DNA of 21,234 bases from a virus (lineage: Duplodnaviria > Heunggongvirae > Uroviricota > Caudoviricetes), in IMG/VR virus record IMGVR_UViG_2698536401_000006. One strand, written 5' to 3'. Positions 4,727 through 18,811 of this stretch are shown here, piece after piece (the stretch's first letter is position 1; every line of letters starts with the position of its first letter). The notes under the pieces are model-generated. The model was not told the origin of the DNA, did not search any database, and saw only the letters and a list, made by a program, of their open reading frames with translations. Position numbers and translations under genes: made by a program.

Positions 4727-5004
4727 ATTGTGGTGCTTTTTGTGGGAGTCATCCACTTACGCACTTTGTTTTGCCATGCCAGCAGTTAGCTTCTGCTGTA
4801 AAACTATTCATGCAGCAAACCTGCACTTCACCACAATGGTTAGCATACTTTTCCTGATTAAGATTTTGCCAAATATGCTAGCCATTGTTTCATGTATTGG
4901 ACCTCCTTACTTTTTATTAAAGAGATCCAATATTCACTACTCTGTCCGTATCTCTACTCAGGCATCAGCCTTCTTCGTTATCGTATACAGACGAGCGATG
5001 AATT

Positions 5005-5220
5005 TTAATCAGTAATGATGACATTTGCTGCTGCAGGACCTTTAGCACCACTCTCTATAGAGAAGGTAACCTTTTGACCTTCAAATAAGGTTCGATAATT
5101 ATCATTCTGAATCGCAGAAAAATGCACAAACACATCTTTACTACCATCAACAGGAGAAATAAAGCCGAAACCTTTATCAGCGTTAAACCATTTTACTAAA
5201 CCAGTCATTTTATTTGACAT
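5005..5220 (-). CDS. cspB: Cold shock protein CspB
   Basis: 71 aa: [67 protein letters not shown]..., CspA-family signature. Confidence 0.9.
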
Positions 5221-5520
5221 TCTACATTCCTTAACTTGAGCCTTTCGGCATAAATGGTTTGCATAACAGAAACGACTTCGTACTTAATTGGAGAGACTCA
5301 AAGAAGGAATAAGTGAATAACACCTGAAATGAGAACTGCTTTAGTAAACTACTTCGTATATCGTCTGTTCTTCAAACCGACGCAATCATTAACGCATAGT
5401 TGAACATATGAAGCAATGTTTATTTTAGACATCCAGCCATCTTCAACCCCATCAAAAAACTATAGCTTTCTTCAGGAACGTGTGTATAGTGCGCCAAGTT
5501 ATCAGTATTAAGGAATTTTT

Positions 5521-6920: not shown

Positions 6921-8009
6921 TTACGCCAGTACGCCAATTGTCAGCGCGCGATCGATAAAACGAAATATCAGCTCCAGTTGGGAGCCATACTTATCTTCAA
7001 ATGCCACTGTATCCGTATGCAGCTCGTTGTGATGCTTTCTGCACAAAGGCAACACAAAGAGATCATGTGCTTTTGTTCCCATTCCGCCCTGCCCGTGACC
7101 AATCAGATGATGCGGATCGTCGGCTGGCATACCGCAGCAAGCACACGGCTGTGTCTTAACCCAACGTGTGTATTTCTCCTTAACCCAGCGGCGACGTTTA
7201 GGCAGCTTCATGAAAGATTCCGGAGACTCTGGATCAACGGTGATGCTTACCACCGTCTTTTCCTGTGGTGATTTTTGTTGCTGGTGGGCGTAAGGCAACG
7301 GTGCAAGATTTTTTGTGCGTTGTTTCAATATGCTGGTGGCGGTCTGCTCTCCCGGTACGATGTCGCTTTCGCGGTACACCGAGCAGATTTTTTCCGCTGG
7401 TAATCCCAGCGAACGACGCGATACAGCCTCAGGTAGTGCATCCACCACCTGATTGCAGACCGCCCACCAGGATAATTCAGCCAAAGATAATTCCCGCTCC
7501 TGCGTACCGCTTATTGCGTGACGGATGACGTCAATCACCCATGCTGTCAGATTTTGTTGAGCAAGCAGCTCCAGTGATTCCGATGTCTGGTCACGCAGTT
7601 GGTTGTCGCAGTGCCAGCACAACACCATTGCGCCGGTACCATAACGGTGAATGACTGTTTCAGTGTGATGGTAATCGCCATTAGGCCACTGGCAGGATGT
7701 AACATGACGTAATAGCCAGTCGGACAATGCGCCAACGCCGCCAGCAGCACGAATCACCCGTTCGTTACTAAAAAACGGCAGCAATGTTTTGTCTTCCGCC
7801 AGCGGCTGGCGAACGGCAGGAACGACTCCGGATGGCAGATTACGCATGCTTTTTGGTTCCGGTTCCACCAGCACTCGAGGATTATGAAATATCTGTATGG
7901 ATTCACGGCCCGGCTTAAGGACCACCAGCCCAAGCTCAGGCACCAGAACAGGTCTAAGTAATACCCGCACGTTACCTCCAGATCCGTTGCTGGAAAGTGC
8001 GGGACGCAC
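6921..8009 (-). CDS. ydfU: YdfU-like protein (DUF968 family) with a C-terminal HNH-like Cys/His motif
   Basis: 362 aa ORF directly upstream of Q. C-terminal CACCGMPADDPHHLIGHG...CRKHHNELH. Start uncertain: the ORF overlaps the upstream rem-like ORF by 38 nt, and an internal Met (MRNLPSG) exists. Confidence 0.65.
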   Translation of the reverse strand: MRPALSSNGSGGNVRVLLRPVLVPELGLVVLKPGRESIQIFHNPRVLVEPEPKSMRNLPSGVVPAVRQPLAEDKTLLPFFSNERVIRAAGGVGALSDWLLRHVTSCQWPNGDYHHTETVIHRYGTGAMVLCWHCDNQLRDQTSESLELLAQQNLTAWVIDVIRHAISGTQERELSLAELSWWAVCNQVVDALPEAVSRRSLGLPAEKICSVYRESDIVPGEQTATSILKQRTKNLAPLPYAHQQQKSPQEKTVVSITVDPESPESFMKLPKRRRWVKEKYTRWVKTQPCACCGMPADDPHHLIGHGQGGMGTKAHDLFVLPLCRKHHNELHTDTVAFEDKYGSQLELIFRFIDRALTIGVLA

Positions 8010-8250
8010 GTGGTGGGCGTTCGGAATAAGGCAGCCTGACAGAGATTATCCAGTGCCGATAGTCGAGACTGAGAGCTTTCTTAACCTCGAACCCGCGCCT
8101 GCGGTAAGAATGAATCAGCCATTCGGCCTGTTCTGCAGTGCATGGAGGGTGCTGGAACCATTCAGACTTGAATGCGTGAGAATACCGCCCGTGCGTGCAG
8201 GCAAGAACGGGCGAATTATCAGAATTGTAATATTTTGCGTTGCGTGCCAT
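7972..8250 (-). CDS. rem: Rem-like small protein (assigned by position)
   Basis: 92 aa ORF between the ydfU-like gene and hokD, where rem lies in K-12 Qin. Named from position only. Confidence 0.5.
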   Translation of the reverse strand: MARNAKYYNSDNSPVLACTHGRYSHAFKSEWFQHPPCTAEQAEWLIHSYRRRGFEVKKALSLDYRHWIISVRLPYSERPPRASRTFQQRIWR

Positions 8251-8316
8251 CGGTTTTCTCCGGTGGCACGGTGTTACTCAGCGGGAGTTCAGCCCCGCGC
8301 AAGATTGTAGATGAGT

Positions 8317-8568
8317 TTATTCTCCTGAAAAAGCAGAAAAGCCAGCTTTTATTCCGATCTCTTTCAATGCCTGTAATGAAGTGACAAACTCACCTTCGCG
8401 CAAGATAAATCCGTCCGTGACCCGAGCATCCACAAAATTAATTAACGCAGCCCCATTCTTTCGCAAACACATAATGCGGTAATGACTAACAAGATTTCCA
8501 TTTTCAACGCACACAGCATAGAGGCCATCTTCACAAAAAATTTTACGCAGTTCTTCGATGTTCATCAT
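8317..8568 (-). CDS. Hypothetical 83 aa protein, no recognisable family
   Basis: ORF with SD GGAAGGA 6 nt upstream of ATGATG, downstream of the relBE-hokD terminator. I do not recognise it. Confidence 0.5.
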   Translation of the reverse strand: MMNIEELRKIFCEDGLYAVCVENGNLVSHYRIMCLRKNGAALINFVDARVTDGFILREGEFVTSLQALKEIGIKAGFSAFSGE

Positions 8569-8685
8569 CAGAATCCTTCCGGATAATTAGCTCTCCCCTT
8601 TAAGGGACCATCCCTCTTATCCCTGCGCGCTACTTAAGTATTTTTGATTCTATTCCGGCACCGTCCAGAACTTCAAACGCGTTGA

Positions 8686-8714
8686 AAATAAAAACAAAAA
8701 CCCGCCGAAGCGGG
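8686..8714 (-). terminator. Rho-independent terminator of the relBE-hokD operon
   Basis: The minus strand reads CCCGCTTCGGCGGG followed by TTTTTGTTTTTATTT, about 70 nt downstream of the hokD stop. Confidence 0.75.
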
Positions 8715-8784
8715 TTAAGTGCGGGTGCGTTGAGGATGCCTGCCACATCAGAGGTGGCGAGGGATTTCTCCCCCGCCGGGTCTC

Positions 8785-8940
8785 TTACTCCTCAGGTTCG
8801 TAAGCTGTGAAGACAGCGACCTCCGTCTGGCCGGTTCGGATTCGTACCTCGCAGAGGTCTTTCCTCGTTACCAGTGCCGTCACTATGACGGTTAAACAGA
8901 TGACGATCAGGGCGATTAACATCGCCTTTTGCTGCTTCAT
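8785..8940 (-). CDS. hokD: Hok-family membrane toxin HokD (RelF)
   Basis: Manual translation gives MKQQKAMLIALIVICLTVIVTALVTRKDLCEVRIRTGQTEVAVFTAYEPEE (51 aa), matching remembered HokD. SD AGGAGAAG upstream. Absent from the ORF track because of its size. Confidence 0.85.
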   Translation of the reverse strand: MKQQKAMLIALIVICLTVIVTALVTRKDLCEVRIRTGQTEVAVFTAYEPEE

Positions 8941-9011
8941 AGCCTGCTTCTCCTGTCAACGCAAAGCAGAAGTGTCACCTTCGGTGCGAAACAGAGATGT
9001 CATGCTTTGGT

Positions 9012-9299
9012 TCAGAGAATGCGTTTGACCGCCTCGCTATATACTTCCGAGCGTTCTCTTTTCCCAACAGAAATCACGAAAACGACAACTTTCTCGTCTA
9101 TAACCTGGTATACAAGGCGATAGCCTGAAGACCGGAGCTTAATCTTGTAACAATCAGGCATACCACGGAGCTTGTTTGCTTCAATCCGGGGTGACTCAAG
9201 TACTTCAACCAGCTTCTTTTTCAACTGTTCACGTACCGTCGAGCCCAGCTTTCGCCATTCCTTTAGTGCCCGCTCGTCAAAATCCAGAAAATACGCCAT
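9012..9299 (-). CDS. relE: RelE mRNA interferase toxin
   Basis: 95 aa: MAYFLDFDERALKEWRKLGSTVREQLKKKLVEVLESPRIEANKLRGMPDCYKIKLRSSGYRLVYQVIDEKVVVFVISVGKRERSEVY..., matching remembered RelE. Start overlaps the relB stop (TGATG). Confidence 0.9.
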   Translation of the reverse strand: MAYFLDFDERALKEWRKLGSTVREQLKKKLVEVLESPRIEANKLRGMPDCYKIKLRSSGYRLVYQVIDEKVVVFVISVGKRERSEVYSEAVKRIL

Positions 9300-9538
9300 C
9301 AGAGTTCATCCAGCGTCACACGTACTGGCTTAGGATTACGAAGCCGTTCTTTCACTATCTCCACAAGTTCAGCATCTTCATCACTCAGGAGTGTCTGTTT
9401 GAACGGCAAGCGTTCATTGTCAGCGATATACTCGAGCATGAGACGAAGCGCTTCAGAAGGAGTTACACCCATTTTTTCAAGCGCGGCGTAAGAACGCGCT
9501 TTAAGTTCATCGTCAATACGCAGGTTAATGCTACCCAT
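9299..9538 (-). CDS. relB: RelB antitoxin
   Basis: 79 aa: MGSINLRIDDELKARSYAALEKMGVTPSEALRLMLEYIADNERLPFKQTLLSDEDAELVEIVKERLRNPKPVRVTLDEL. SD GAGG upstream. Confidence 0.9.
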   Translation of the reverse strand: MGSINLRIDDELKARSYAALEKMGVTPSEALRLMLEYIADNERLPFKQTLLSDEDAELVEIVKERLRNPKPVRVTLDEL

Positions 9539-9544
9539 GTCTTA

Positions 9545-9590
9545 CACCTCTTGTAATTACAAATGTCATTACAAGTATCGCACTACAACA
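9545..9590 (-). promoter_or_regulatory. relBE promoter/operator (relO) with TTGTAAT/ATTACAA hexad repeats
   Basis: TTGTAATTACAAATGTCATTACAAG sits immediately upstream of the relB start, with palindromic TTGTAATTACAA. Confidence 0.7.
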
Positions 9591-9868
9591 TGCTTAGGGC
9601 AAGTCACGAAGGAAGTCAGAAAGTAGTCGTAAGAACGGTGATCACTGTCCGCTTTGTGCCAGGAGCAGCCATTGCTAAGTCCATCCTGTATTGTGCAGGT
9701 CAGCTCGTTTTTAAAGAGTCCGGCCATCATCTTACTGGTACAGACACCATATACTTTGTGACGGTCAGGCTACATATGCACAACTCAACTTATTCATCTA
9801 TTTTTTGCTTTAGCATGTCAGTGTTGCTTTCTCGTCGGCGGGTGAGCGGTGACCTGACCTGTCGATAA
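9563..9868 (+). CDS. Doubtful ORF, YdfV-like by position and length
   Basis: 101 aa ORF in the relB-flxA gap with no RBS and no recognisable features. It overlaps the relO promoter region. Listed only because K-12 annotates a 101 aa ydfV here. Confidence 0.2.
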   Translation: MSLQVSHYNMLRASHEGSQKVVVRTVITVRFVPGAAIAKSILYCAGQLVFKESGHHLTGTDTIYFVTVRLHMHNSTYSSIFCFSMSVLLSRRRVSGDLTCR

Positions 9869-10020
9869 AGGAACGTAACACGTTTTATGCAACACCCGCA
9901 TGCGGCAGAAAATTATTGCCGAACGTTTACCCCTGTCAACAAGCTTTACTTTCTGAGGCGCGCCAGCCCGCGAGGAAAACAATCTGAACATCAAACAATT
10001 AATGACACAAGAAATACGAT

Positions 10021-10047
10021 TAAAGATTTTTTTGTGCATGCCGATAG
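10021..10047 (+). promoter_or_regulatory. Sigma-28 (FliA) class 3 flagellar promoter upstream of flxA
   Basis: TAAAGATT-N11-GCCGATAG compared with the consensus TAAAGTTT-N11-GCCGATAA; about 24 nt upstream of the flxA start. Confidence 0.75.
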
Positions 10048-10070
10048 TGCTTTTTTAAAAGGAGAAATCT

Positions 10071-10403
10071 ATGTCTGTCACAATTCAGGGAAATACCTCA
10101 ACCGTTATTTCAAACAACTCCGCCCCGGAAGGAACATCAGAAATAGCCAAAATCACAAGACAAATTCAGGTGCTGACTGAAAAGCTTGGGAAAATCTCAT
10201 CGGAAGAGGGGATGACGACACAGCAGAAAAAAGAAATGGCTGCATTGGTACAGAAGCAAATTGAAAGCCTCTGGGCTCAACTGGAGCAGTTGTTAAGGCA
10301 GCAGGCAGAGAAAAAGAATGAAGACGCGACAGTTCAGCCTGATAAAAAAGAAGAGAAAAAAGACGATACAAATACCGCTGGCACCATTGATATTTACGTC
10401 TAA
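10071..10403 (+). CDS. flxA: FlxA (FliA-regulated protein)
   Basis: 110 aa: MSVTIQGNTSTVISNNSAPEGTSEIAKITRQIQVLTEKLGKISSEEGMTTQQKKEMAALVQKQIESLWAQL... RBS AAGGAGA. Confidence 0.85.
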   Translation: MSVTIQGNTSTVISNNSAPEGTSEIAKITRQIQVLTEKLGKISSEEGMTTQQKKEMAALVQKQIESLWAQLEQLLRQQAEKKNEDATVQPDKKEEKKDDTNTAGTIDIYV

Positions 10404-10417
10404 GTGACAGCCGTATT

Positions 10418-10441
10418 GTGGCCCTCATCGGGCCACTTTTC
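10418..10441 (+). terminator. Rho-independent terminator of flxA
   Basis: Hairpin GTGGCCC-tcatc-GGGCCAC followed by TTTTCG. Confidence 0.6.
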
Positions 10442-10839
10442 GCCATCAGCCTTTTCTTTAAAGACATATTATCTTTGTATCATTTCTGATAGTTAACATT
10501 ACAAGATATAAGTAATGGACGCACTCCCAATTAGTCTATTTAAATCGCCACGAGTTTAACTGACAACCCATGATCAATTATGAATTGCAACTATTTCTGT
10601 AGTCACTTTTGTGGGGACAGTCCACAAAACTGCCAACTTCCGCTTCTTGCTCTTAGCGGACATTAGCATAGGCTATTTACCATAACGCCTCATTACGCGC
10701 ACCGCCCAGACTGACTCAGCGCGTTTCTGGCATATCCCCGGTAAAACAAGTAACAAACCACCCGAAAATGAACACCAGAAACGCGACTTAAGAATCTACC
10801 CTATGAATGGATATGCACTCAACCGAATCGATCTTGGTT

Positions 10840-12153
10840 TCAATCTTTTTTATCGGGATCAGGCTTCTTTTTAGGTAACTTCGGGGGCTTAACTTGCTGA
10901 TGACTTTGCGTTCGGCGCGTAAGCCAGGGATGGTCAGCTTTAGGTTTAACATAGTATTTTGAGCGTAAATCAATACGGGCATTATCCACTCGTTCATGGA
11001 CACTCTTTTCATCATCCAGTGGTATAGGCTCCGGGCCATCAACATACTTTTCCCAGCCCAGCGCTTTCCCGTCATACAGAACGTTAATTTCACCGTCAAA
11101 GTTCTCGCATACAGTAACAACCGAATGCCTAAGTCGATATCCCCGGCCCTCACTGCGTACCTGAAACGCACTGCTTTTGTACTGGAAAGTGAGATTTTTA
11201 GACAGAACGCGCTTCGCCTGTAGGCTGAAGATATAACCCAGTTCCTCTTCAGAATGGTGCACATCAAGATGAGCATTATCAGTAGTACGAGGCGACGTAG
11301 CGAACCGGTTGTTATAGGCTTCAATAAAGGTCGGCAACCATGCATTTGCTGTTTCAATATCACTGATATTCTGAAGCCGCATTTCTTTGACCAGCCTGTC
11401 CTGTAGTGTCTGATTGGCGCGCTCTACCCGCCCTTTTGCCTGCGGGCTGTTGGCATGGATTGGCTCGATGCCCAGTGTCTTTATCGCACGAGTGAACTGG
11501 GTCAGCTCACCTTCCCGCTCTGGGTTATTTACCCTGAATATACTGTGTCTATCAGAGTAGAGAGCGAGCGGTACGCCATGATCATTAAGGTAACCCCGGA
11601 GGGTTTCCATGTAAGCCCGGGTTGTTTCAGCAGGCACAAAACGCAACGCCATCAACGCACTGGTGGCATCATCAATGAAAACGATCAGTGTACATCTGGG
11701 GCCTCGATTTTCAAACCAGTCATGAGGTGAGCCATCAATCTGGATCAGTTCACCGTAAGATGGTCGTCGCATGCGGCGTTGATATATACGGGCAATTTTA
11801 CGACGGCGTTCACGCCATAACCCCTCTTCTATCATCCACTTTCTGAGAGTTTCAACGGATAAAGATAAACCGTGTATCTCGCGCAATTTTTCGCACGCAA
11901 ACGTAGGTCCAAAATCAGCGTAACGGCCTTTGAGGAGTGAAATTACTGTTGCTCTGAATTCAGTAGAAAAGGAATTATTAGGACGCTTTCCACGTCGGTG
12001 GGAAACCAGACCAGAAGGCCCTTCATTTCTATACCGTTGCACCAGACGTTTAACCTGCCGAATAGAAATGCCAATGCGTGCCGCAGCTTGTTCCTGAATA
12101 ATCTGAAGTCGGTGGAGTTCCTTATGACTCATCGTAACAGTCTCTTTGATCAT
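10840..12153 (-). CDS. DDE transposase with N-terminal HTH and rve (integrase-core) domain, IS481-like in architecture
   Basis: 437 aa with an N-terminal HTH region (ISIRQVKRLVQRY) and D/D/E-type core segments (IQIDGSPHDWF, LIVFIDDATS, LYSDRHSIF, ERANQTLQD). IS family is not established and IS ends were not identified. Confidence 0.75.
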   Translation of the reverse strand: MIKETVTMSHKELHRLQIIQEQAAARIGISIRQVKRLVQRYRNEGPSGLVSHRRGKRPNNSFSTEFRATVISLLKGRYADFGPTFACEKLREIHGLSLSVETLRKWMIEEGLWRERRRKIARIYQRRMRRPSYGELIQIDGSPHDWFENRGPRCTLIVFIDDATSALMALRFVPAETTRAYMETLRGYLNDHGVPLALYSDRHSIFRVNNPEREGELTQFTRAIKTLGIEPIHANSPQAKGRVERANQTLQDRLVKEMRLQNISDIETANAWLPTFIEAYNNRFATSPRTTDNAHLDVHHSEEELGYIFSLQAKRVLSKNLTFQYKSSAFQVRSEGRGYRLRHSVVTVCENFDGEINVLYDGKALGWEKYVDGPEPIPLDDEKSVHERVDNARIDLRSKYYVKPKADHPWLTRRTQSHQQVKPPKLPKKKPDPDKKD

Positions 12154-12370
12154 GAAAAATCCCCCAGAGAATTGTCTGGGGACATTTTAGAATGGTTCAA
12201 AGGGGACATTACAGCTTGGTGTTAACAATAGCCTGCTTCTCCGTGCCTTTCGGCACGTAAGAGGCTAACCTACATGTGTCTAGCATGAAATTGGCCTCAG
12301 ATTAATGTTAAGCGTCTTGCAGGACGCGTAATGTTAACTGGGGCTTTTCTCTATCTGCCGTTGGTGTCCA

Positions 12371-12402
12371 TGCCCGAGGCAGATAGCCTCAAGCACCCGC
12401 CG
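12371..12402 (+). repeat. Left copy of a 32 bp imperfect direct repeat flanking the low-GC cassette
   Basis: TGCCCGAGGCAGATAGCCTCAAGCACCCGCCG; 27 of 32 nt match the copy at 14390-14421, with an identical 14-nt core CCTCAAGCACCCGC. Confidence 0.6.
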
Positions 12403-12636: not shown

Positions 12637-13665
12637 TTACGCCTTAATAGGGTTAATCACATTTCCGCTATCCGTACCATAGTATTTTTTTGTAGTCATG
12701 CCTTGTTTATAATAATCATTTAACAGTTTGAGAAAGTTTCTTCCTTGCCTCTCATCTTCTATGACTAATTTACCATGCTCATTGGTCTTAAACTCTTCGT
12801 TCTGAAACATTTTTAGCACATCATTCATAGCTTGAACATCATTCTTTTCCAGAACCGTATGGTTACCTTTCTCAGCGATATGAGTGAGAATTTTTCTCAG
12901 TGATGGCTTATGAAGAATAGCTTGTTCAATAACATCTAAACCTTCAATAAGATCAAGTTCTTTAATTGTATTTAATGTTTTTTGTGCAGCTTCTGTAAAC
13001 TCAACCTCCAAGCCTACAATAGCCTCAAAACTTTTCTTATGAAATACATAAAATTGATCTTTTATATAAATACAATCGATTTTGTCATCAAAATTGACTG
13101 CGCTGCCATCAAATGATCTTAACTCTTTATCTGTTTTATCAAACAAAGCGAATACGCGCTGAGTCATATTTTGTGGTTCATTTGTTGTGACTTTCCCCCT
13201 GCTGATTTTTCGGAAAGAATAAGTGACGTCAGCCCCCTTTTGGACTTTAATACAATAGGCCCACAAATCATTCTGAACCTCAGCCAGAGAGGTAAGTACA
13301 ACTGGTTTATCATTCTTTATATCGTTATTAATAACTTTTGAAAACGATATCGCGTTATTCATAGCATAGGCATAAATCTTATTATCAATATCATCATCAA
13401 TAACAGTATACTTTTTCATCACAATATCATCTTTCGAAGCATGAGAAATAATCTGGTTTGATAAAGTATACTTAAAAAATTTAGCAATATCTGGAGCGAT
13501 TGGAGCTTTAATGATTTTAAAATCGAATTTATCAACAACTCTTGCGGTTCTACTCATACCCGCTTTAAGATGTCTAGTAATGAAATACAACGATATTTTC
13601 GCCGCATCATCATCCTTAAGTTGCTCAGCATACTCTAATAATTCTTCAAGCTTTAACATTTTCAT
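12637..13665 (-). CDS. Hypothetical 342 aa soluble protein, second gene of the low-GC cassette (candidate defence effector/sensor)
   Basis: AT-rich ORF with Lys/Asn/Ile-biased codon usage unlike the surrounding prophage. Translationally coupled (ATGA overlap) to the upstream membrane protein gene. No motif I can name. Confidence 0.75.
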   Translation of the reverse strand: MKMLKLEELLEYAEQLKDDDAAKISLYFITRHLKAGMSRTARVVDKFDFKIIKAPIAPDIAKFFKYTLSNQIISHASKDDIVMKKYTVIDDDIDNKIYAYAMNNAISFSKVINNDIKNDKPVVLTSLAEVQNDLWAYCIKVQKGADVTYSFRKISRGKVTTNEPQNMTQRVFALFDKTDKELRSFDGSAVNFDDKIDCIYIKDQFYVFHKKSFEAIVGLEVEFTEAAQKTLNTIKELDLIEGLDVIEQAILHKPSLRKILTHIAEKGNHTVLEKNDVQAMNDVLKMFQNEEFKTNEHGKLVIEDERQGRNFLKLLNDYYKQGMTTKKYYGTDSGNVINPIKA

Positions 13666-14276
13666 TCCTTATGGGATTCAGCATAAAAAAGTTTTGGGCC
13701 CACGTCCTCAACATCAAGAAGATCATCTTCCTCCAAATACTTTGATTTAGTCAAAACCATACCAGTGCGTTTTTTGTCGCTTTCTAAATCCAAATATGTA
13801 ACTTGATATAAAGTATAATTAATACTTATTGTAGGATTTATAAGTATCATGCTTGAATTAATATATATTAAAGCCGTTACCGTTAACAATATTGCTATAG
13901 GTATAACATTAGTTAAAGTGGATAGATCCTGAAATACAAACGGAATTATATATGTAAAAAGATAGCTTATTGATTCATTGTTTTTATTTTCAATATCTAT
14001 AACTCTTACAGTTCTACCACTAGTGGCGCATCGACGTTTTATATTTTTTAAAAAAATTGTTAATCCTACAATACCAAATAATGATAATACACCAATGACA
14101 CTGACCGCGCCAAAGTATTTAAAGAAAATAGTTAATGATTCAACACTTATACCTTTCCAATTTAAATAGCTTCTATAAGTATACAATTGCACAAAACACA
14201 TGATAAAGAATAGGGGAAGGTATGACACTATAAATAGCGAAACTCTAGCACCTAAATGTAGTTTATTTACTCTCAT
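13662..14276 (-). CDS. 4-TM membrane protein, first gene of the low-GC cassette
   Basis: 204 aa with four hydrophobic segments (about 12-31, 48-74, 103-115, 123-146) and an acidic C-terminal tail. AT-rich. Its stop overlaps the start of the downstream gene. Confidence 0.7.
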   Translation of the reverse strand: MRVNKLHLGARVSLFIVSYLPLFFIMCFVQLYTYRSYLNWKGISVESLTIFFKYFGAVSVIGVLSLFGIVGLTIFLKNIKRRCATSGRTVRVIDIENKNNESISYLFTYIIPFVFQDLSTLTNVIPIAILLTVTALIYINSSMILINPTISINYTLYQVTYLDLESDKKRTGMVLTKSKYLEEDDLLDVEDVGPKLFYAESHKE

Positions 14277-14484: not shown

Positions 14485-15171
14485 TCACTCCTTCTCTTCT
14501 TTATCGTAGTGGAGTTGACCAATTTTGATAAGAGGGCGTCCCTGAGATTTGCGGTGTAGATTGGTATCGCGCAGAGAATACACACAGCCACAATATTCCT
14601 GCTGATAGAATTTTTCGCGCTTGCTGATTTCAATCATGCGGGACGAGCCGCCCTGCTTGCGCCAGTTATAATCCCAGTACACCATGCCCGGATAATGCGC
14701 GACGGCTCGCCGCCCACAGTCGTTAACCTGCTGCATATTTTTCCAGCGTGAAATGCCCAGTGAACTGCTGATCACACTGAAACCATTTTCAGCAGCGTAC
14801 AGCGCTGTCCGCTCAAAACGCATGTCAAAACACATGGTACAACGGATCCCCCTCTCGGGCTCCCATTCCATTCCTTTGGCACGTTCAAACCAGTTGTCTG
14901 TGTCGTAATCAGCATCAATAAATGGCACGCCGTGTTGTTCAGCAAAGCGAATATTCTCATCCTTACGAATTAAATACTCTTTCTGAGGATGAATGTTCGG
15001 GTTGTAGAAAAAGATGGTATAGTCGATTCCCGAGGCCTGAAGCGCCTCCATCACTTCACCGGAACATGGAGCACAGCAAGAGTGCAGTAGTAGTTTGTTT
15101 GCCCCGTTTGGGAGCTCCAATTTAGGCCGTTTGAAATCAGCAATAGTCATAAATATTTTTATTGGGGTCAT
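14485..15171 (-). CDS. QueH-like protein (DUF208, epoxyqueuosine reductase family)
   Basis: 228 aa containing [14 protein letters not shown] near the N-terminus, the Cys motif I associate with QueH/DUF208, plus further conserved Cys (CTMC, CGC). Start could be the internal Met at 15150. Confidence 0.65.
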
Positions 15172-16806: not shown

Positions 16807-17254
16807 TTGCTTTTTCTATAAGTTCGTCAGTTTCACGATCCACTACGGCAGGATCAGCAAAAAGCAGTCCGGACTCCACCACATCGCCATATTCTTTGTT
16901 TAACCCGGCGATCATGTACGTGATGCTTTTTCCGTCACTAATTTCACGATGCAACCTGAAATCATTAATCCGGATAGCCTCCATAATTGCAGGCACTAGC
17001 GCCGTGAACTTTTCACGCTTATCCCTGGTGTCGATAGCCTTCCAGCGTTCGAATATCTTCACTCGATTAACGCCAAGCGCTCGCTGATCAACCGCGCCAC
17101 CTTCATCTGTGACACGCTGAACATCGATGTTCGGGCGCTCTTTCAAAGCCCAGAATGCTTCAGTGATTAATATCGTCGCCTGCTCCTGTGTCATTCCTGG
17201 TCGACATATCCAGGCATCCAGAGCCTCACGAGCCTGTTCAGGAGTGATTTTCAT
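16733..17254 (-). CDS. Hypothetical 173 aa early protein adjacent to dicC (cII/YdaT position)
   Basis: ORF overlapping the dicC stop. Possible weak resemblance to YdaT-type proteins, but this is from uncertain memory only. Confidence 0.55.
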   Translation of the reverse strand: MKITPEQAREALDAWICRPGMTQEQATILITEAFWALKERPNIDVQRVTDEGGAVDQRALGVNRVKIFERWKAIDTRDKREKFTALVPAIMEAIRINDFRLHREISDGKSITYMIAGLNKEYGDVVESGLLFADPAVVDRETDELIEKAIAFKLAYRQQYQQKAGWNYEPSFC

Positions 17255-17465
17255 TGTTCAACCGCCCCGCCCGCTTCGTCTTACGATATTCGTCATAAAC
17301 CTTGGGATCATACAGAAGCTCGCCGCCAGATGCCTCCTGTAGACGCATCGCGCGACCTTCAGGAACCAGCTCTTGCCATTGAGAAACAGCAGATGGGTCA
17401 ACGCCAGCAGCTTTCGCTACTTTGGCTTTCGTACCGTAAAAATTAATTACGTCTGATTTAAACAT
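17238..17465 (-). CDS. dicC: Cro-like repressor DicC
   Basis: The C-terminal ...LVPEGRAMRLQEASGGELLYDPKVYDEYRKTKRAGRLNNENHS matches remembered DicC. Probable start is the ATG at 17465 (MFKSDVINFYG) with SD GGAGG; the ORF track extends to 17492. Confidence 0.8.
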   Translation of the reverse strand: MFKSDVINFYGTKAKVAKAAGVDPSAVSQWQELVPEGRAMRLQEASGGELLYDPKVYDEYRKTKRAGRLNNENHS

Positions 17466-17542
17466 CGCACCTCCAATATTGAGTTTTCTCAATGCTAATC
17501 ACTCAAGGAATCTCAAGTCAAGGGTTATTAAGATATCTAAAT
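17466..17542. promoter_or_regulatory. dicC/dicA divergent promoter-operator region with palindrome TTGAGTTTTCTCAA
   Basis: 77 bp between divergent cro-like and cI-like genes. Perfect palindrome at 17479-17492; the related motif recurs at 18016-18027 and, inverted, at 18052-18063. Confidence 0.65.
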
Positions 17543-17950
17543 ATGAACGAGAAAACTTTAGGTCAACGCATTAGAGAAAGACGTAAGCAGGTAGGCTTAA
17601 GTCAAAACGGTTTAAGCAAAGCTGCTGGCGTATCTGGCTCATCAATTTCATTATGGGAAAGTGACCATACAGCCCCGCGCGGGCAAAATTTGCATCGCCT
17701 CGCCGAGGTATTGCAATGTTCACCAACCTGGATACTGTTTGGCGACGAGGACAAAACACCAGCTCCCCCTGTTTCACTCGATAGTGCCTTAGACTTATCG
17801 GAAGATGAGTTAGAGATGCTGCGTTTGTATCGCGCACTTCCTAAATCAGAGCAACAAGCACAACTCAGCGAACTCCGCGCCCGCGTTGAGAATTTTAATC
17901 GCCTGTTCACCGAGCTATTAGAGGCTCGCAAACGCAACAAGCATCAATAA
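17543..17950 (+). CDS. dicA: cI-like HTH repressor DicA
   Basis: 135 aa from the ATG at 17543 (MNEKTLGQRIRERRKQVGLSQNGLSKAAGVSGSSISLWE...LQCSPTWILFGDEDK...), matching remembered DicA in length and motifs. The ORF track extends to 17492. Confidence 0.85.
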   Translation: MNEKTLGQRIRERRKQVGLSQNGLSKAAGVSGSSISLWESDHTAPRGQNLHRLAEVLQCSPTWILFGDEDKTPAPPVSLDSALDLSEDELEMLRLYRALPKSEQQAQLSELRARVENFNRLFTELLEARKRNKHQ

Positions 17951-18013: not shown

Positions 18014-18066
18014 CTTGAGTTTTCTCATCAAAAAGCCTTGACGAAAAATAATGAGAAAACTAAATT
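18014..18066 (+). promoter_or_regulatory. PdicB-like promoter (TTGACG-N17-TAAATT) flanked by inverted DicA-operator motifs
   Basis: -35 TTGACG at 18038-18043 and -10 TAAATT at 18061-18066. Operator half-sites GAGTTTTCTCA (18016-18027) and TGAGAAAACTAA (18052-18063) bracket the promoter. Confidence 0.65.
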
Positions 18067-18753: not shown

Positions 18754-18811
18754 TTTCTGGTGACGTTTGGCGGTATCAGTTTTACTCCGTGACTGCTCTG
18801 CCGCCGTTTTT
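18754..18811 (+). ncRNA. dicF: DicF small regulatory RNA (ftsZ-targeting sRNA) with intrinsic terminator
   Basis: TTTCTGGTGACGTTTGGCGGTATCAGTTTTACTCCGTGACTGCTCTGCCGCCGTTTTT matches remembered DicF, including the terminal hairpin and U-run. Located between ydfB/C and dicB. Confidence 0.8.

Follow-up and report, generated by a model that had tools for sequence, protein, structure and literature searches.

The closest described system is that of the Qin prophage in Escherichia coli K-12 MG1655, whose gene rem (b1561) was recovered in a search for an antirepressor of DicA, a 135-aa, CI-like, non-cleavable repressor (Ragunathan et al. 2023, J Bacteriol 205:e00129-23, PMC10448788). The search started from GfoA of Gifsy-1 and FsoA of Fels-1, both linked to Rem transitively by PSI-BLAST. 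Expression of rem from Ptet raised an in-locus dicBp-lacZ fusion 165-fold, that is, ectopic Rem derepresses the DicA-controlled promoter dicBp, and derepression followed also when rem carried its native RBS and when Plac drove it. The same study reports that rem expression leads to filamentation and growth arrest, both of which are lost in Δqin and in ΔdicB ΔdicF strains, and that deletion of rem leaves spontaneous, urea-induced and heat-induced dicBp induction, as well as DicF accumulation, unchanged (PMC10448788). A preprint (PMC11430063) describes Rem as lifting DicA repression of both dicC and dicB "through an unknown mechanism", and a 2024 y-ome survey still counts rem among the uncharacterized Qin genes.

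For the Gifsy antirepressors, Lemire et al. 2011 (PLoS Genet 7:e1002149) describe purification in complex with the cognate repressors and dissociation of these repressors from DNA, and they credit GfoA and GfhA each with the inactivation of two heteroimmune repressors. [quoted passage not shown] Gifsy-1 also carries the IsrK-orf45-anrP arrangement, in which the anrP mRNA is transcribed yet translationally silent until an RNA signal (Hershko-Shalev et al. 2016).

Here we characterize an ORF of 83 codons plus stop, starting with ATG, in a stretch of 21,234 nt of caudoviricete DNA (IMG/VR record IMGVR_UViG_2698536401_000006), to the whole of which we refer as the window. The ORF and its immediate surroundings comprise the following features:

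8317-8568, minus strand: rem coding sequence (ORF list; 100% identity to WP_000980994.1; PHROG 340; PF27490; dN/dS).
8574-8580, minus strand: Shine-Dalgarno sequence GGAAGGA, 5 nt ahead of the ATG at 8568-8566 (sequence).
7972-8250, minus strand: 92-aa ORF on the other side of rem, an unnamed hypothetical protein (PHROG 1212).
8689-8716, minus strand: intrinsic terminator of relBE-hokD, stem AACCCGC-UUCG-GCGGGUU followed by a U tract (terminator scan).

The translation is 100% identical to that of MG1655 rem, annotated in RefSeq as "protein Rem" (WP_000980994.1), and positions 7900-9600 of the window match E. coli K-12 MG1655, along with many further strains, at 100% identity. The ORF is therefore a known gene, and since its function as an antirepressor of DicA has already been published, the assignment is no discovery. 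The original prediction had the coordinates and the translation exactly right (the strand is minus), and the good Shine-Dalgarno sequence it reported is present as GGAAGGA; a GGA-bearing Shine-Dalgarno sequence is retained in all six of the divergent loci compared. Its description of the ORF as unassigned does not stand, as the same ORF is already rem in the RefSeq annotation of MG1655; the listing of rem as uncharacterized in the y-ome survey may be why it looked so. The ORF had further been placed between rem and the relBE-hokD terminator. The terminator does lie on one side, and what lies between is rem itself; the name had probably been given to the neighbouring 92-aa ORF, for which we found no match in Pfam. 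Likewise, the absence of a recognisable motif holds for our local copy of Pfam, in which Rem has no match at E<=0.1, and fails in that a family PF27490, named "Rem", exists, precomputed matches to which are carried by all listed homologues of the protein.

The homology search proposed with the prediction thus returned the identity with Rem, the family PF27490 and 138 homologous clusters at 90% identity, from E. coli, Shigella and E. albertii; the comparison of related prophages, also proposed there, showed that functional phages (mEp460_ev081, PhiR42_1, HannyBb and the PPompW group) carry an undamaged rem and that the gene is under purifying selection. Synonymous differences between divergent copies amount to 0.4-0.7, and dN/dS lies at 0.11-0.41 (Nei-Gojobori; 19 comparable pairs), which marks rem as a real gene under purifying selection. 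The rem leader, described below, is present in 3051 of 5426 complete E. coli genomes. These figures bear on the notion that the ORF is a chance frame, or a decayed and functionless pseudogene of a cryptic prophage. Qin is defective, deletion of rem had no phenotype in the conditions tried (PMC10448788), and the gene's uncharacterized status in the y-ome survey points the same way; against this stand the dN/dS values, the intact copies in functional phages, core residues that are invariant as far as other genera, a confident structural model and a strong published gain-of-function phenotype. Conservation and published activity have already refuted this reading, to which we attach a negligible probability.

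In gene order, rem occupies the nin region, between the replication genes and Q and upstream of DUF968/irsA genes. It starts about 120 nt downstream of the relB-relE-hokD terminator, which insulates it from upstream transcription and is conserved in hok-bearing loci. We surveyed 99 rem loci, the denominators differing per feature: hok lies at most 600 nt upstream of rem in 89 of 96, relE adjoins it in 48 of 95, and the 92-aa ORF follows it in 90 of 99. The original prediction had drawn from this neighbourhood a candidate role as an accessory or regulatory gene. The regulatory half agrees with the reported relief of DicA repression at dicBp and dicCp (PMC10448788, PMC11430063). Were the ORF an accessory or regulatory part of the adjoining relBE-hokD toxin-antitoxin cluster, the nearly constant presence of hok directly upstream would find a ready explanation, as would the label "Antitoxin Rem" in the PhiR42_1 record and a weak NCBIfam match of Rem to the SocB toxin. 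However, relE is adjacent in only about half of the loci, and four loci (L098-L101) have neither hok nor relBE and retain rem, its leader, the 92-aa ORF, DUF968 and Q, so that the toxin-antitoxin neighbourhood is incidental; the phages mEp460_ev081 and PPompW also carry rem without relBE. A strong terminator stands between hokD and rem, PADLOC has no match for Rem, and the toxicity of Rem disappears in ΔdicB ΔdicF strains, in which relBE-hokD is still there (PMC10448788). We regard membership of Rem in the toxin-antitoxin cluster as very improbable, and the accessory half of the predicted role is not supported, given the relE count and a published phenotype that depends on dicB and dicF. The SocB match (NF047746) spanned 47 residues and scored 14.9 bits where the cut-off is 210; it was rejected as noise. 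As a separate observation, six rem-bearing loci from other E. coli strains (L098-L103, at about 8100-11500 in each) carry genes for ADP-ribosylating toxins downstream of Q, of LT-II type and pertussis-like (Enterotoxin_a, Pertussis_S1, LT-IIB).

The family to which Rem belongs is small, with only 54 members recovered when 1.84 billion representatives were searched exhaustively with a profile; the match of Rem to PHROG 340 (E=4e-21) leads to a group without assigned function. Escherichia and Shigella have a long form of 83-87 aa; Citrobacter, Pluralibacter, Buttiauxella and Klebsiella have short or intermediate forms of 56-99 aa, in most of which the N-terminal ~35 residues are missing. Common to all is a core LxYxxxGxxxxGFxL(R)xxEFVTSLxxLxExxxxAG, to which Rem conforms, and in an alignment of 37 sequences that includes other genera L42, F54, L56, the run E60-F61-V62-T63-S64 and G76 are invariant. 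With this alignment AF2 gave a model of Rem at pLDDT 83.9, replacing a poor one (pLDDT 55.8) obtained with 19 sequences. The model predicts a helix at residues 4-10, beta-hairpins at 16-32 and 41-55, the EFVTS segment and a helix at 65-74. It had no structural match in PDB or BFVD, and as the fold resembles nothing solved, the structure adds nothing on mechanism. The best sequence match to a solved structure, the ethanolamine ammonia-lyase light chain, had an E-value of 0.7 and was rejected.

The family probably reaches one of the antirepressors from which the published search had started. In Fels-1, ORF STM0898.2n is retrieved by Rem profiles (hmmsearch E=4e-6) and aligns with the Rem family over a 46-column core (hhalign probability 93.9%, E=1.6e-7). 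It is located between STM0896 and STM0897 in the left operon, the mapped position of fsoA, and solely from this map position we infer it to be FsoA. No similarity was detectable by hhalign (probability 0.2%) between Rem and the biochemically characterised GftA, taken as the GUG-initiated ORF of the dinI-irsA interval in LT2 Gifsy-1.

The short relatives differ from E. coli rem in their control. All four of their loci examined (L086-L089: two from Citrobacter and one each from Pluralibacter and Buttiauxella) have a CTGT-N8-ACAG LexA-box motif within 400 nt upstream, and in both of those that were read the box is perfect. In the Citrobacter locus L086 (9599-10183) a terminator is followed by the LexA box TACTGTATAAAAACACAGTA, a dinI homologue and then the Rem-like gene; in the Pluralibacter locus L087 (9960-10180) the box TACTGTACAAAAAAACAGTA stands immediately ahead of the Rem-like gene. 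The layout of L086, terminator-LexA box-dinI-antirepressor, is that of the Gifsy-type SOS module; in E. coli, the Rem type has lost this module. Between hokD and rem in the window we found no LexA box (CTG-N10-CAG), and among loci of the Rem type CTGT-N8-ACAG was seen only in L082, inside the hok leader. With no box at its promoter, rem stands apart from the LexA-controlled antirepressors GfoA/GftA, 186 Tum and N15 AntC. Because FsoA is not LexA-controlled either, a member of the Rem family outside the SOS response has a precedent.

About 9 kb from rem, the window contains the presumed target of Rem and associated genes:

17543-17950, plus strand: dicA, encoding the presumed target of Rem, a CI-type repressor of 135 aa that is HTH-only and non-cleavable (Pfam, HTH_3 only).
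17238-17468, minus strand: dicC, encoding a P22 Cro-type regulator (Pfam P22_Cro, E=3e-16; gene order compared with annotated phages).
18755-18806, plus strand: DicF sRNA (above the Rfam gathering threshold).

Pfam detected no peptidase domain in the window DicA. dicC heads the rightward early operon, which runs on the same strand as rem, and an HTH-only 135-aa repressor of the DicA family is found upstream of rem, on the opposite strand, in 49 of the 61 loci with at least 9 kb of upstream sequence. The window also shows operator-like palindromes, with ATTGAGTTTTCTCAAT at 17478-17493 and related copies near 18014-18028 and 18050-18065; a search of the rem leader for an operator-like sequence of the ATTGAGTTTTCTCAAT type found no counterpart.

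Compared with K-12 Qin, the window has an identical Rem and a 100% identical ydfU-relB flank around it, whereas its DicA (dicA compared with L001, 7701-8108) is only 56% identical to K-12 DicA, the allele on which Rem was tested, and 100% identical to that of mEp460_ev081. By its sequence, the window prophage is a mosaic that combines the K-12 rem flank with dicA of the mEp460_ev081 type. Unlike the K-12 Qin remnant it still has replication genes, and it contains Kiwa, QueH and an IS. The anti-phage pair Kiwa lies in the early region, at 12637-14276 on the minus strand. Further features of the prophage are:

13662-14276, minus strand: KwaA (PADLOC, E=1e-101).
12637-13665, minus strand: KwaB (PADLOC, E=3e-159).
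14485-15171, minus strand: homologue of the epoxyqueuosine reductase QueH, beside the Kiwa genes (Pfam, E=2e-65).
10840-12153, minus strand: IS transposase with HTH and rve domains, inserted beside the second sok match.
12227-12398, minus strand: second match to the sok antitoxin RNA (Rfam RF01794, 104 bits).
2094-2479 and 4989-5381, minus strand: two cspA-type thermoregulator leaders of prophage cold-shock genes (above Rfam gathering thresholds).

The position of the second sok match beside the IS implies a second hok/sok locus, possibly disrupted.

We consider it highly probable that this ORF, rem, encodes a small trans-acting antirepressor of lambdoid prophages that inactivates the short, non-cleavable DicA, and we infer both direct binding and a transcription unit of its own. 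Rem, once made, would inactivate DicA, and loss of DicA activity would derepress two early promoters, the leftward dicBp (ydfABC-dicF-dicB) and the rightward dicCp; the dicBp step has been demonstrated for K-12 Rem, an identical protein (PMC10448788). [quoted passage not shown]

That Rem probably binds DicA directly is suggested by analogy with GfoA/GftA, which bind GfoR/GtgR, and the distribution of DicA alleles points to where the contact might lie. Rem proteins of at least 98% identity are paired with at least four classes of DicA allele, and a Rem of only ~51% identity is paired with K-12-type DicA. The alleles found with the same Rem are 56-63% identical to one another and diverge mostly in the HTH, whereas a linker CSPTWxxFGDEDK and a C-terminal LPxSEQ...RARVxNFNxLF are common to all. 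Since one and the same Rem accompanies diverse alleles that share linker and C-terminus, Rem would recognise these shared parts: the putative contact is with the linker CSPTWxxFGDEDK and the helix at the C-terminus rather than with the variable HTH. Such recognition of a shared surface would parallel that of GfoA and GfhA, each of which acts on two heteroimmune repressors (Lemire 2011).

Pairing of one Rem with such divergent alleles could also have a generic explanation, in which Rem derepresses indirectly, by delivering DicA to a host protease, by titrating a co-factor, or via DicC or the operators, and forms no stoichiometric complex with DicA. The published data on Rem consist of reporters and phenotypes only, the mechanism being called unknown (PMC11430063), and the predicted fold of Rem matches no known repressor-binding protein, both of which are compatible with an indirect route. 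Against it speak the invariant linker and C-terminal segments of DicA, which could form a common binding surface, the match of the Rem family core to the ORF at the fsoA position of Fels-1, and the behaviour of the related Gifsy antirepressors, which were purified as repressor complexes and dissociate the repressors from DNA (Lemire 2011). On this evidence we consider an indirect route distinctly unlikely, and direct inactivation of DicA remains the preferred reading.

With regard to its own expression, rem is probably an independent transcription unit, with a sigma-70-type promoter behind the hokD terminator, a leader of ~70 nt and a structured 3' end:

8647-8676, minus strand: candidate sigma-70-like promoter, TTGAAG-18 nt-TAGAAT (consensus scan; conservation in six loci).
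8608-8630, minus strand: purine-rich 23-nt leader block GCGCGCAGGGATAAGAGGGATGG, with two AGGGA motifs (alignment of six loci).
8595-8607, minus strand: small CCC-loop-GGG leader hairpin with a loop that varies between loci (alignments and RNAalifold; weak support).
8228-8316, minus strand: 3' UTR of 89 nt with two stable hairpins (fold and Term-seq 3' end).

The promoter candidate matches the consensus at 9 of 12 positions, in a scan that returned 3 sites where 1.5 were expected and is thus insignificant by itself. All six divergent loci nevertheless retain a -10 of TAGAAT or TAAAAT together with a -35 of the form TTGAnn, and the DNA upstream of the -10 is only 17-47% identical among them. 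The ROSE supplement has no entry for a rem transcription start. Within the leader, the block GCGCGCAGGGATAAGAGGGATGG is 83-100% identical across six loci whose Rem proteins are 50-100% identical and which differ by 0.4-0.7 at synonymous sites; it occurs once in the window and is predicted to be unpaired. The leader as a whole showed little sign of conserved structure, with an RNAalifold consensus of -4.5 kcal/mol, a single-sequence z-score of 0.44 and essentially no covariation. The GGA motifs of the block invite the idea of CsrA binding to GCGCGCAGGGATAAGAGGGATGG, which we regard as unsupported speculation; no CLIP peak at rem appears among the rows listed in the part of the Potts 2017 supplementary tables consulted.

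The 3' UTR is a different matter. It folds at -28.7 kcal/mol (z = -3.48), none of 200 shuffled sequences being equally stable, and its second hairpin takes in both the RBS and the ATG of the 92-aa ORF. Term-seq data include a curated "orphan" RNA 3' end at MG1655 1644572 on the minus strand, with 64,702 and 47,630 reads in two conditions (PMC7815308, supplementary file 1), which maps to window position 8228, 89 nt past the rem stop and 22 nt inside the 92-aa ORF. Its read abundance is similar to that at the processed 3' end of hokD; in the same data the processed hok mRNA ends at window position 8738. An abundant 3' end behind two stable hairpins points to rem being a separate transcription unit that is expressed. 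An RNA that ends past rem accumulates in ordinary cultures, in which Rem is phenotypically silent, and this is compatible with post-transcriptional control without demonstrating it; that rem, unlike its short relatives, is not LexA-controlled also leaves room for control after transcription.

We therefore put forward, as a tentative and rather doubtful proposal, that rem has exchanged the LexA/SOS input for another: its own unit would be transcribed in ordinary growth, from the conserved sigma-70-type promoter to the structured 3' end, and stay translationally silent, and an RNA-binding protein or sRNA acting at the unpaired, GGA-rich 23-nt block GCGCGCAGGGATAAGAGGGATGG would control the synthesis of Rem. 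If this were true, the sensor missing so far would be the leader block, and it would time the switching on of DicB/DicF, or of the lytic cycle, in prophages of the DicA type, which over half of the complete E. coli genomes contain. Three leads on the mechanism and signal of Rem emerge from the analysis, namely LexA boxes that the short relatives have and rem lacks, a conserved leader, and DicA alleles that vary independently of Rem.

The layout and silence of rem have a likeness in IsrK-orf45-anrP of Gifsy-1. Both arrangements have an antirepressor gene near Q, rem being upstream of Q, with a terminator-ended RNA ahead of it, and the abundant RNA 3' end and phenotypic silence of Rem recall the silent anrP mRNA. 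Unlike that system, rem yielded neither a leader ORF nor a complementary sRNA in our searches, and AnrP is of an unrelated family and far larger than Rem (~180 aa as estimated from transcript coordinates). An Rfam match to IsrK over the hokD 3' UTR and terminator (8695-8776, minus strand) scored 25.1 bits against a gathering threshold of 50; we ascribe it to generic hairpins and keep the comparison as an analogy only. Antirepressors of the P22 Ant type are a further remove away: Pfam gave no match of Rem to ANT, KilAC or Bro-N domains at E<=0.1, and 83 aa leaves no room for them.

Rem also compares with FsoA and the Gifsy proteins (Lemire 2011). FsoA and Rem are both small trans-acting antirepressors of a short repressor of the Gifsy/DicA type, both without LexA control and both encoded in an early operon. 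They differ in that FsoA is encoded in the leftward operon and targets the repressor of another prophage (GtgR of Gifsy-2), whereas rem lies in the nin region and has its target in its own phage; Fels-1 itself has a cleavable repressor, unlike the DicA-type phage of Rem. Relative to the ORF at the fsoA position, Rem has an additional N-terminal helix and beta-hairpin of ~35 aa. GfoA, GfhA and GftA (of Gifsy-1, -3 and -2) are, like Rem, small proteins whose genes follow a terminator in the nin region and whose repressor partners are non-cleavable proteins of 135-136 aa; in the LexA-controlled Gifsy operons the order is dinI-antirepressor-irsA, whereas rem has neither LexA box nor dinI, and in Rac-type loci rem lies directly upstream of irsA, as do the Gifsy antirepressor genes. 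As an 83-aa protein encoded outside the immunity region, in a prophage with a short, HTH-only repressor, Rem fits the setting of the Gifsy/Fels antirepressors.
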